The translations under genes and the position numbers were made by a program. The notes under the pieces were generated by a model, which had not been told where the DNA came from, made no database searches, and saw only the letters and a list, made by a program, of their open reading frames with translations. DNA of 64,000 nucleotides from Thermoanaerobaculia bacterium (GTDB lineage: Bacteria; Acidobacteriota; Thermoanaerobaculia; Multivoradales; JAGPDF01), in NCBI GenBank assembly GCA_963712855.1, contig CAVQJN010000001.1:358612-422611 (forward strand), written 5' to 3'. Of this stretch, positions 42,261-43,746 are shown piece after piece. Position 1 is the stretch's first letter. Each line of letters opens with the position of its first letter.

Positions 42261-42453
42261 AGCCGGCAACCCGTTCCCCGAAAGAGGGAGTCGGCACCGG
42301 AGCCTCTTCGCCCGAGGGCGTCCGAAACCCCTCCCCTTCCCGAGAAAACGCCGCCATAATCCGCCCCAGGACGCGGCAGATTTTCAGCATCGCCAGCGGG
42401 AGCCAGCGTCGATCATGGAGACGACTCCGCGCTCCTAGTCCGAGGAGGCGAGC

Positions 42454-43128
42454 ATGACTCGCACGTTCCGTAGGACCCTCGTCACCACCGTGACGCTCAC
42501 CCTCTGCGCCAGTTGGATGAACGCCCAGACCATGCAAGCGACCGGCAGCGTCGAGCTCGACGATCCGGCGGGCGACATGGAAGGCATCCAGACCACGGGC
42601 GGCGTTGAACCGGCGCTCGACGTCACCCACGTGAACGTCGTGAGCGACGGCAAGACCTTGCGCTTCGACGTGACCCTCGCCGATGCACCCGGCGCCTTCG
42701 CCAGCTCCATCATCGACGCCTACATCGACGCCGACAACGACGCGAAGACCGGACCCGAAGTCCGTGACCACGGCTCCGGCTTCGACTACAAGCTCAAGCT
42801 CGAGGCCTGCGCCGACTACACCAACGGCATGAGCGCCTGCGAAGGCGGATCCTCCAAGGCCAAGCCCAAGACCCACTGGGGCGCGGTCAACCTCGACAAG
42901 CTGACTACCAACTCCTTCTCCGGCGACACCGTCGTCGACTCGATGGGCTTCCCCGGCAGCAAGGCGTCAGCGAAGGTGCCGGTCACCGGGAAGGTGGTCA
43001 GCGGCAGCGTCGAATACGCCGATCTCGGCGTGAAGCCCGGCCAGACCATCCGCCTGCTCATGCGCGAGAGCGGCGGCTCGCCGAAGGACGACGGTTACTT
43101 TCCGCTGGTGACACTGACCCTGAAGTAG
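42454..43128 (+). CDS. hypothetical secreted protein (224 aa)
   Basis: RBS GAGGAGG before the ATG; signal peptide (LVTTVTLTLCASWMNAQT); Asp/Gly-rich mature region. Confidence 0.6.
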   Translation: MTRTFRRTLVTTVTLTLCASWMNAQTMQATGSVELDDPAGDMEGIQTTGGVEPALDVTHVNVVSDGKTLRFDVTLADAPGAFASSIIDAYIDADNDAKTGPEVRDHGSGFDYKLKLEACADYTNGMSACEGGSSKAKPKTHWGAVNLDKLTTNSFSGDTVVDSMGFPGSKASAKVPVTGKVVSGSVEYADLGVKPGQTIRLLMRESGGSPKDDGYFPLVTLTLK

Positions 43129-43163
43129 ACGCGCGCAACTTCTCGACTCCCGAGCCGGCGCAC

Positions 43164-43650
43164 GAGCCTCTCTGGTCGAGAGGCTGGGATGCGGCCACAT
43201 CTTCCGCTCAGATGGGACCCCAGAGATCCACCGAGGAAGCTGTGGACGCATACCGGACCCACGGAATGCCAATCACGATCTGGCGCCGGAGCCTCTCTGC
43301 CCGAGGGGCCGGGATGCGGCTACATCTTCCGCTCAGATGGATCCCCGAAGATCCACCGAGGAAGACGTGGACGCATACCGGACCCACGGAATGCCAATCA
43401 CGACCTGGCGCCGGAGCCTCTCTGCCCGAGGGGCCGGGATGCGGCTACATCTTCCGCTCAGATGGATCCCCGAAGATCCACCGAGGAAGACGTGGACGCA
43501 TACCGGACCCACGGAATGCCAATCACGACCTGGCGCCGGAGCCTCTCTGCCCGAGGGGCCGGGATGCGGCTACATCTTCCGCTCAGATGGATCCCCGAAG
43601 ATCCAACGAGGAAGACGTGGACGCATACCGGACCCACGGAATGCAAAACA
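43164..43650. repeat. Tandem repeat array B: 125-bp unit x ~3.9 (copies at 43164, 43289, 43414, 43539), related to array A
   Basis: Units B2 and B3 are identical. Array B shares with array A the core gagcctctctgcccgaggggcNgggaNgcggctacatcttc and ...ataccggacccacggaatgcc. The period is not a multiple of 3. Confidence 0.85.
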
Positions 43651-43746
43651 CGCCTCGGCGCCCCCGAGCAGACCCCCGGCGCAGAGTCGATCGCCAGGCT
43701 CGAAGCGCTCGCCTACCTGCCGTGGGACGGTCGCAGCCGCCCGCGC

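Follow-up and report, generated by a model that had tools for sequence, protein, structure and literature searches.

How did a fragment of a sulfatase gene come to lie directly behind an array of hairpin-forming repeats? The question is raised by a stretch of 64,000 nucleotides (nt) from a Thermoanaerobaculia bacterium (GenBank assembly GCA_963712855.1, contig CAVQJN010000001.1, positions 358,612 to 422,611), which we call the window. Two tandem arrays, A and B, enclose genes for an M3 oligoendopeptidase (PepF), an intact sulfatase and a protein of 224 amino acids (aa), and array B is followed by a short relic of a sulfatase 3' end (Table 1). The original prediction held that the repeat is targeted to the end of the sulfatase gene, that the fragment is a duplicate of that gene end, and that a paralogue may have been destroyed in the process. 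We favor a different reading, with a probability of roughly 0.62, in which the locus is the scar of a gene-order rearrangement lying beside an intergenic repeat that was amplified locally.

The fragment is a real remnant of a sulfatase gene and is longer than first described. The segment GAGTCGATCGCCAGGCTCGAAGCGCTCGCCTACCTGCCG at 43684-43722, encoding ESIARLEALAYLP, had been read correctly, and it forms part of a 72-nt stretch that aligns ungapped and in frame, over 24 codons, with the 3' end of the intact sulfatase gene and terminates exactly at the expected stop position, where the codon is now TGG (from TGA or TAG). The nucleotide identity of ~85% given for the shorter segment was too high, since 31 of 39 positions match (79.5%), and over the 72 nt the identity is 69.4%. 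The same pairing was returned by the repeat finder (family D9; 42188-42259 with 43653-43724, in the same register), the two copies being 1,465 nt apart on the same strand. The local alignment of the relic with the gene's own 3' end scored 21, compared to best scores of 14.0 ± 0.9 on average and 16 at most in 40 random sequences with the same dinucleotide statistics. As predicted, the relic follows array B immediately: it starts where the last unit, B4, stops (~43653), and its left edge adjoins the ~115-nt hairpin-forming element of which the arrays are built. Apart from the intact gene and the relic, tblastn searches with six family members revealed no further sulfatase segments, a 5' remnant included, at 36.5-44 kb.

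The origin of the relic was assessed by comparison with the related loci L007, L008 (JGI Ga0247387_10001419, syntenic with the window) and L009; a further locus, L010, was compared for gene order. Over the 72 nt, the relic matches the L008 sulfatase gene at 79.2% of nucleotides and 17 of 23 residues, versus 69.4% and 14 of 23 for the adjacent gene. A blastn comparison with the sulfatase 3' ends of L008 and L009 gave 81% identity over 68 nt (E = 2e-13), and in tblastn the L008 protein (P0004) detected the relic with 17 of 23 residues at E = 7.5e-5, compared to E = 0.006 for the protein of the adjacent gene (P0001). The signature LG(T/A)PEQT is common to the relic and P0004, whereas the adjacent gene, L007 and the proteins P0002 and P0003 carry PTN(K/H)LDPESIA. 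The adjacent gene is thus not the closest relative of the relic, and the proposed duplication of its 3' end is not supported.

Homology searches with the sulfatase yielded 2,715 proteins, and nearly all of the 120 homologues listed contain the C-terminal motif (D)xES(I/V)xxL(R/K)(A/S)LGYxx; the homologues carry Thermoanaerobaculia or Acidobacteriota labels. Because residues of this motif that are kept in nearly all of these 120 proteins have changed in the relic (D to G, R/K to E, G of LGY to A, and stop to W), the relic is in decay. Its differences from L008 are spread over the first, second and third codon positions (4, 5 and 6, respectively), compared to 3, 1 and 13 between the intact gene and L007, a distribution expected if the intact gene is under purifying selection. 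The closer relationship to L008, the PEQT signature, and the loss of the stop codon and conserved residues identify the relic as an old, decaying pseudogene stump of a different family member, which has drifted without coding constraint. Its C-terminal similarity, fragment status and relaxed constraint are those of a 3'-terminal remnant from the same PF00884 subfamily. It is also similar to other pseudogene stumps at deletion or rearrangement junctions in being a short, collinear, in-frame 3' fragment with a lost stop codon and no codon-position bias. Nothing essential distinguishes it from ordinary stumps, its notable features being the origin from a different sublineage than the neighbor gene and the breakpoint at the edge of a minisatellite. 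A second sulfatase gene of the same subfamily, of the L008 type, once ended at 43725 and converged on the GGDEF and aldehyde dehydrogenase genes, and all of it but the last 72 nt is gone. The suspected destruction of a second sulfatase gene is therefore borne out by the stump, whose breakpoint coincides with the 3' edge of array B.

Gene order differs among the compared loci. In L008, the genes are arranged as PepF, a 125-aa gene, the sulfatase, a 225-aa gene, two small genes and, on the opposite strand, aldehyde dehydrogenase, with neither arrays nor a GGDEF gene. The window differs from L008 in that the homologue of the 125-aa gene is now upstream of PepF, the two small genes are missing and the GGDEF gene is present, with its stop codon 21 nt from the end of the relic. 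The 224-aa gene, which probably encodes a secreted protein, corresponds to the 225-aa gene of L008 (76% nucleotide identity to L008 11615-12198). In L007, the sulfatase gene is directly convergent with the aldehyde dehydrogenase gene and is preceded by a 286-aa aldehyde-dehydrogenase-like gene, both neighbors being on the opposite strand. The pairing of aldehyde dehydrogenase and GGDEF genes is kept in L010, and no convergent sulfatase gene was observed beside the PAS-GGDEF homologues in the four cases checked.

Both arrays were delineated with Tandem Repeats Finder, which placed array A at 38202-38823 (period 170, 3.7 copies, 95% matches) and array B at 43157-43662 (period 125, 4.0 copies, 95% matches). 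The arrays have in common a core of ~115 nt that is ~80% identical between them, compared to an internal identity of 92-95%, and array A contains in addition a spacer of 45-55 nt built of flank sequence. Eight full units align gap-free over 125 columns, all in direct orientation, and no other significant copy was detected within the 64 kb by nhmmer or the covariance model. B1 is the most diverged unit of array B, and the end of B4 is altered from CCAATCACGA to CAAAACACGC. The arrays encode no protein repeats, because their periods of 125 and 170 nt are not multiples of three; the frame shifts by 2 nt with each unit, and no consistent open reading frame (ORF) is maintained. No promoter or U-tract terminator was found.

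The unit junctions argue for amplification in place. The junction of array B, CACGAyCTGGCGCCGGAGCC, has counterparts in CCGGCGCACGAGCC of the left flank and CACGCCTCGGCGCC of the right flank, and the spacer of array A ends like the left flank and contains GCGAAGACCGGG, which recurs as GCCAAGACCGGG past the last unit. Since the junctions thus look like the right flank joined to the left flank, they point to local amplification of a resident element rather than to repeated insertion. In the proposed scenario, an element of ~115 nt would have been amplified to four 125-nt copies by unequal exchange or slippage between short direct repeats that contain GGCGC and flank it on either side, the right-hand repeat being CTCGGCGCC (Leu-Gly-Ala) of the sulfatase stump. 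Downstream of the 195-aa gene, a diverged sister element would have been amplified independently, together with a longer piece of flank, to give the 170-nt units of array A.

Each unit contains a palindrome of ~89 nt, with 30-nt arms that are 83% complementary and a reverse-strand self-match at E = 1e-7. Two folds were recognized in the units, a 7-bp hairpin 1 (GCCTCTC-5 nt-GAGGGGC) and a long imperfect hairpin of 24 pairs. They are mutually exclusive, as nine nucleotides in the 3' half of hairpin 1 also serve in the base of the long stem. Across the units, 95.8% of the long-hairpin positions are paired, compared to 31-46% after shifting the partner columns by 1-3 positions. Changes on both sides of a pair occurred three times (37:97, AU/UA; 52:82, CG/UA; and 43:91), and of the one-sided changes six, by our count, retain G-U pairing on the plus strand and one does not, which mildly favors the plus strand as the putative folding strand. 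Array B starts 25 nt past the stop codon of the 224-aa gene and array A ~160 nt past the upstream stop codon. Given this location just 3' of same-strand genes, the arrays would most likely be co-transcribed as hairpins of the 3' untranslated region (3'-UTR), of the REP, ERIC or MIRU kind; an effect on transcript 3' ends or stability is something we infer only.

A separate fold was noted at the start of array B. Unit B1 carries TGGTCGAGAGGC where the other units have TGCCCGAGGGGC, and this variant pairs with the upstream flank CTTCTCGAC. The resulting hairpin (43129-43200), located just past the stop codon of the 224-aa gene, has a computed energy of -32.2 kcal/mol and accounts for 75% of the ensemble; it may mark the 3' end of the 224-aa transcript.

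Table 1. Positions of the genes, arrays and other features discussed in the text, numbered from the first nucleotide of the window.
Feature	Position	Strand	Description	Identified by
195-aa gene	37444-38031	+	5' of array A	
Array A	38190-38824	+	3.7 units of 170 nt; downstream of 195-aa gene	Tandem Repeats Finder, alignments
Long hairpin	38835-38904		20-nt arms, GGGGACAGCTWCCAATTTTC and complement; directly 3' of array A; unrelated to array units	
M3 oligoendopeptidase (PepF)	38980-40831	+	Frameshifted	
Intact sulfatase, 461 aa	40875-42260	+	Stop codon 42258-42260; protein ends in LGAPTNKLDPESIAQLKALGYLP	Pfam PF00884, E = 1.6e-44
Solo core, candidate partial copy	42285-42320	+	Unit junction and hairpin 1 only; marginal support	
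224-aa gene	42454-43128	+	Hydrophobic N-terminus; function unknown; L008 orthologue at same place	
Array B	43154-43653	+	Four head-to-tail units (B1-B4) of 125 nt	Tandem Repeats Finder, nhmmer, covariance model
Sulfatase relic	43654-43725	+	Last 23 codons and former stop; translates as LGAPEQTPGAESIARLEALAYLPW; now non-coding	
PAS-GGDEF diguanylate cyclase, 337 aa	43747-44760	-	Convergent on relic	Pfam; P0121, 100% match over 337 aa
Aldehyde dehydrogenase	44757-46337	-	Next to PAS-GGDEF gene	

Several points weigh against a rearrangement scar beside a locally amplified repeat. L007 and L008 alone do not suffice to order the events, and both the loss of a paralogue and the replacement of the resident orthologue by an incoming block are candidates. 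Since the relic breakpoint coincides exactly with the array edge, the element may have had a part in causing the deletion, and the clustered frameshifts in the neighboring PepF gene could stem from a local error of assembly. The structural interpretation of the repeat is weakened by the small basis of the covariation, namely about three events in two independent array lineages of one genome, and homogenization of a DNA palindrome could mimic such covariation.

In one alternative, which we regard as unlikely, the arrays are the direct-repeat bounds of a block of ~5.4 kb comprising the PepF pseudogene, the sulfatase gene and the 224-aa gene; this block would have recombined in or moved, replacing the body of a resident L008-type sulfatase gene, so that the elements were recombination substrates rather than passengers. 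Consistent with such an exchange, the arrays have the same orientation and flank exactly 38190-43653, the intact gene inside is of the L007 type and the stump outside is of the L008 type, and PepF inside the block is degraded. Moreover, without this segment the 195-aa gene would lie ~160 nt 5' of the remnant, mirroring the adjacency of the 125-aa gene and the sulfatase gene in L008, and a low-GC island a few kb upstream marks the region as plastic. However, with arrays only ~80% identical any exchange must be old, the block has no distinct GC content, no recombinase gene is located nearby, and the window provides a single example. In addition, PepF, sulfatase and the 225-aa gene already stand in that order in L008, so that the block looks native.

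Similarly doubtful is the wider proposal that the ~115-nt element is a functional module, acting either as a plus-strand RNA or DNA module whose tandem copies in the 3'-UTRs of two small secreted-protein genes would form a switchable device for transcript ends or stability, or as recombination sites bounding a movable block of PepF, sulfatase and 224-aa genes, exchange between which deleted the resident sulfatase gene.

Site-specific insertion of the element at or near sulfatase 3' ends, with the solo core (a putative single copy behind the intact sulfatase gene) and array B as two events of which one destroyed a paralogue, appears quite improbable. This model draws on the proximity of the element to sulfatase 3' ends, from which two of its three occurrences in the window are no more than 40 nt away, and on the resemblance of the unit junction CCTGGCGCCGGAGC to CCTCGGCGCCCCCGAGC in the relic. 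The positions are nevertheless inconsistent among the three occurrences: the solo core begins 37 nt past a stop codon and follows the gene, array B precedes codon -24 of the relic, and tblastn found no sulfatase sequence near array A. Target-site duplications, expected by the original prediction around array B, were not convincing either, as the flanks share just two collinear 7-mers, CCCGAGC and CGGCGCA. The former is also present just downstream of the orthologous 225-aa gene in array-free L008 and looks ancestral rather than like a target-site duplication. Finally, a Pfam scan of the 16 ORFs between 28 and 49 kb identified no transposase or integrase domain.

The solo core itself is a marginal case. 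Its sequence and position, CCGGAGCCTCTTCGCCCGAGGGCG at 42297-42320, had been given exactly, and it is the top non-array match in the window for unit B and for both nhmmer profiles, with 23 of 26 nt matching the start of unit B and 26 of 34 nt matching the type-A junction and hairpin 1. Against unit A alone, its local score of 15.0 is tied with another site. The nhmmer E-value is only 0.21-0.22 (E > 3 for the next non-array match), the covariance-model E-value is 1.8, and the local score was equaled in 1 of 60 random sequences. The match holds just the first ~30-nt module of the unit. It sits between the sulfatase stop codon and a conserved GCCGCCATAATC motif, in a spacer that measures 90 nt here versus 35 nt in L008. 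On these data, the solo core probably derives from a partial, now decayed copy of the first module, but it could be a chance match. Further along the spacer upstream of the 224/225-aa gene, GCCGYCATAATC(C)GCCCCAG and ACGCGGCAGA are kept in the window (42350-42385) and in L008 (~11415-11470), whereas the remainder of the spacer is not conserved between them; this stretch may be a promoter or leader.

Equally hard to sustain, and if anything less probable still, is a recent local duplication of the last ~72 nt of the adjacent sulfatase gene, for instance as a long target duplication accompanying insertion of the 224-aa gene and the element, followed by decay of the copy. The arrangement of the two copies, on the same strand, in register and less than 1.5 kb apart, would suit such an event, but the relic is nearer to L008 in both nucleotide and amino acid sequence, and the four-codon PEQT block ties it to L008 and P0004 just as PTNK/H ties the adjacent gene to L007, P0002 and P0003. 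The 224/225-aa gene is already 3' of the sulfatase gene in L008 and hence is not a new insertion.

Coincidental similarity of GC-rich codons is practically excluded: the window has a G+C content of 69% and its six-frame translation contains LxALGY-like strings elsewhere (two weak ones), but the relic outscored all 40 random sequences, aligns in frame without gaps up to the stop position and has an independent, better match in L008 at both the nucleotide and the protein level.

Other classes of repeats were also considered for the arrays. Coding repeats are ruled out by the periods. A CRISPR array is ruled out, as whole units including the spacers between cores are 92-95% identical and no cas domain was found among the ORFs scanned. 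The template and variable repeats of a diversity-generating retroelement were rejected, since the differences between A and B are not adenine-specific and the scanned ORFs contain no reverse-transcriptase domain.

A candidate terminator overlaps the relic on the minus strand. The hairpin CTCGGGGGCGCCGAG followed by GCGTGTTTTG (43645-43668), located downstream of the GGDEF gene, is composed of the 5' end of the relic and the altered end of B4, with a consensus-type call at 43668-43654. The idea that the relic has been kept as the holder of a GGDEF terminator is weak, since this hairpin is unused in the minimum-energy fold and the region has less structure than expected from shuffled sequence (z = +1.55).

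By analogy with described repeat systems, the arrays appear to behave like MIRU-type minisatellites built on an ERIC-like imperfect palindrome. The MIRU, ERIC and REP classes have been reviewed together with their co-transcription, their influence on mRNA stability and their occurrence with truncated genes in plastic regions, Xenorhabdus locus D being the example given of repeat-associated plasticity and truncation (PMC3184786). Like the MIRU-VNTR loci of mycobacteria (PMC3184786), which consist of head-to-tail GC-rich units of tens to ~100 nt with internal inverted repeats, the arrays are intergenic, lie between or after co-oriented genes, have locus-specific unit variants and are absent at the homologous site of relatives. 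In contrast to MIRU-VNTR, the units are longer (125 and 170 nt), have no sequence similarity to them, lack small ORFs overlapping the flanking stop and start codons, and have periods that are not multiples of three. With respect to dispersal, the 64 kb contain two arrays 5 kb apart and one marginal partial copy.

The likeness to ERIC/IRU and to MITE-like palindromes such as Correia and RUP (PMC3184786) lies in the imperfect palindrome of ~90-125 nt with a long bulged hairpin, in the location toward the 3' ends of genes, a setting in which such elements are transcribed with the gene and can change the stability of its mRNA, and in the association with genome plasticity and truncated genes. ERIC elements, however, occur dispersed, as single copies that have terminal inverted repeats and TA target duplications, whereas the copies described here are tandem, with one marginal partial solo copy and no target duplication found; of the MITE hallmarks, the palindrome is present and the target-site duplication is absent from the array B flanks. 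Clusters of extragenic palindromes downstream of genes are also formed by REP/BIME sequences of enterobacteria and pseudomonads, for which roles in mRNA 3'-end protection, termination and recombination have been proposed (PMC3184786; PMC3733652). In contrast to the array units, REPs are 20-40 nt long, carry a GTAG or CGTC tag, usually alternate in orientation and are associated with RAYT transposases (PMC3184786; PMC3733652); the units here are three to five times longer, all direct and without such end tags. No sequence is shared with the MIRU, MITE or REP/BIME families.

Database searches for relatives of the repeat gave uniformly negative results. Rfam 15 produced no match at gathering thresholds in the whole window, and at E ≤ 10 the 38-44 kb region matched only microRNA and CRISPR-repeat families far below their gathering scores, matches that are most readily regarded as chance. 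The most conserved 20-mer, TACCGGACCCAYGGAMYGCC, had six matches among 185,579 species-representative genomes, all confined to the 20-mer and attributable to chance. A metagenome scan with a tandem 13-mer pattern, which was poorly chosen, yielded 49 matches, none of which resembled the units in blastn; these matches may be collagen-like coding repeats, judging by spacings that are multiples of 3 and 9 and by a TGPTG-type reading. The three plus-strand frames of array B had no match among 1.84 billion representative proteins, a minus-strand ORF had no candidate in a set of 5.8 billion proteins, and blastn against the plasmid collection was negative. The covariance model R1 detected nothing in the loci of the relatives, and the orthologous sites of L007, L008 and L009 contain no traces of the element. 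The arrays represent a previously unrecorded family of hairpin minisatellites with no relative in the databases searched.

The remaining observations concern other parts of the window. The long hairpin behind array A is near-perfect (-47.7 kcal/mol, z = -4.4) and unique in the window, and a hairpin of similar style, GGGGAAAAGTACC...GGTACTTTTCCCC, is located downstream of the L007 sulfatase gene (~11621-11675); the two may belong to a separate REP-like family. Compared with its L008 orthologue, the PepF gene has nine insertions of 1-3 nt and one 1-nt deletion within ~650 nt (39939-40573) while the neighboring genes are intact. Either the gene is a true pseudogene, or this part of the assembly is badly polished. 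A protein of 285-287 aa whose match to the aldehyde dehydrogenase profile is confined to the N-terminal half (12-212 of 461) is conserved in three genomes (window 35846-36703 on the minus strand, L007 8673-9533 and L010 15129-15992), each time with a full-length aldehyde dehydrogenase gene nearby. The low-GC island (~31500-35800) has a G+C content of 54-60%, compared to 69% overall. Its products are a 464-aa protein containing an HNH_2 endonuclease domain and a 699-aa NTPase of the STAND type (NB-ARC/AAA_16), and it resembles an acquired defense-type island a few kb from the rearranged region. A coding tandem repeat at 16337-16764 (126 nt, 3.4 copies), unrelated to arrays A and B, gives rise to 42-aa repeats (RIVEPPVELDHPPIETL...) in a 678-aa ORF (15451-17487).

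As things stand, the locus is chiefly a warning to annotators, as the ORFs called at 43.2-43.8 kb are not genes, and its weight is modest unless the element turns out, on genome-wide data, to drive rearrangement or to act as an RNA. Beyond that, the stump and its surroundings constitute a dated footprint of how a poorly sampled Thermoanaerobaculia-like lineage lost a gene and changed its gene order. If the element does mediate rearrangement or shape transcript 3' ends, it would be an Acidobacteriota counterpart of ERIC, REP or MIRU.

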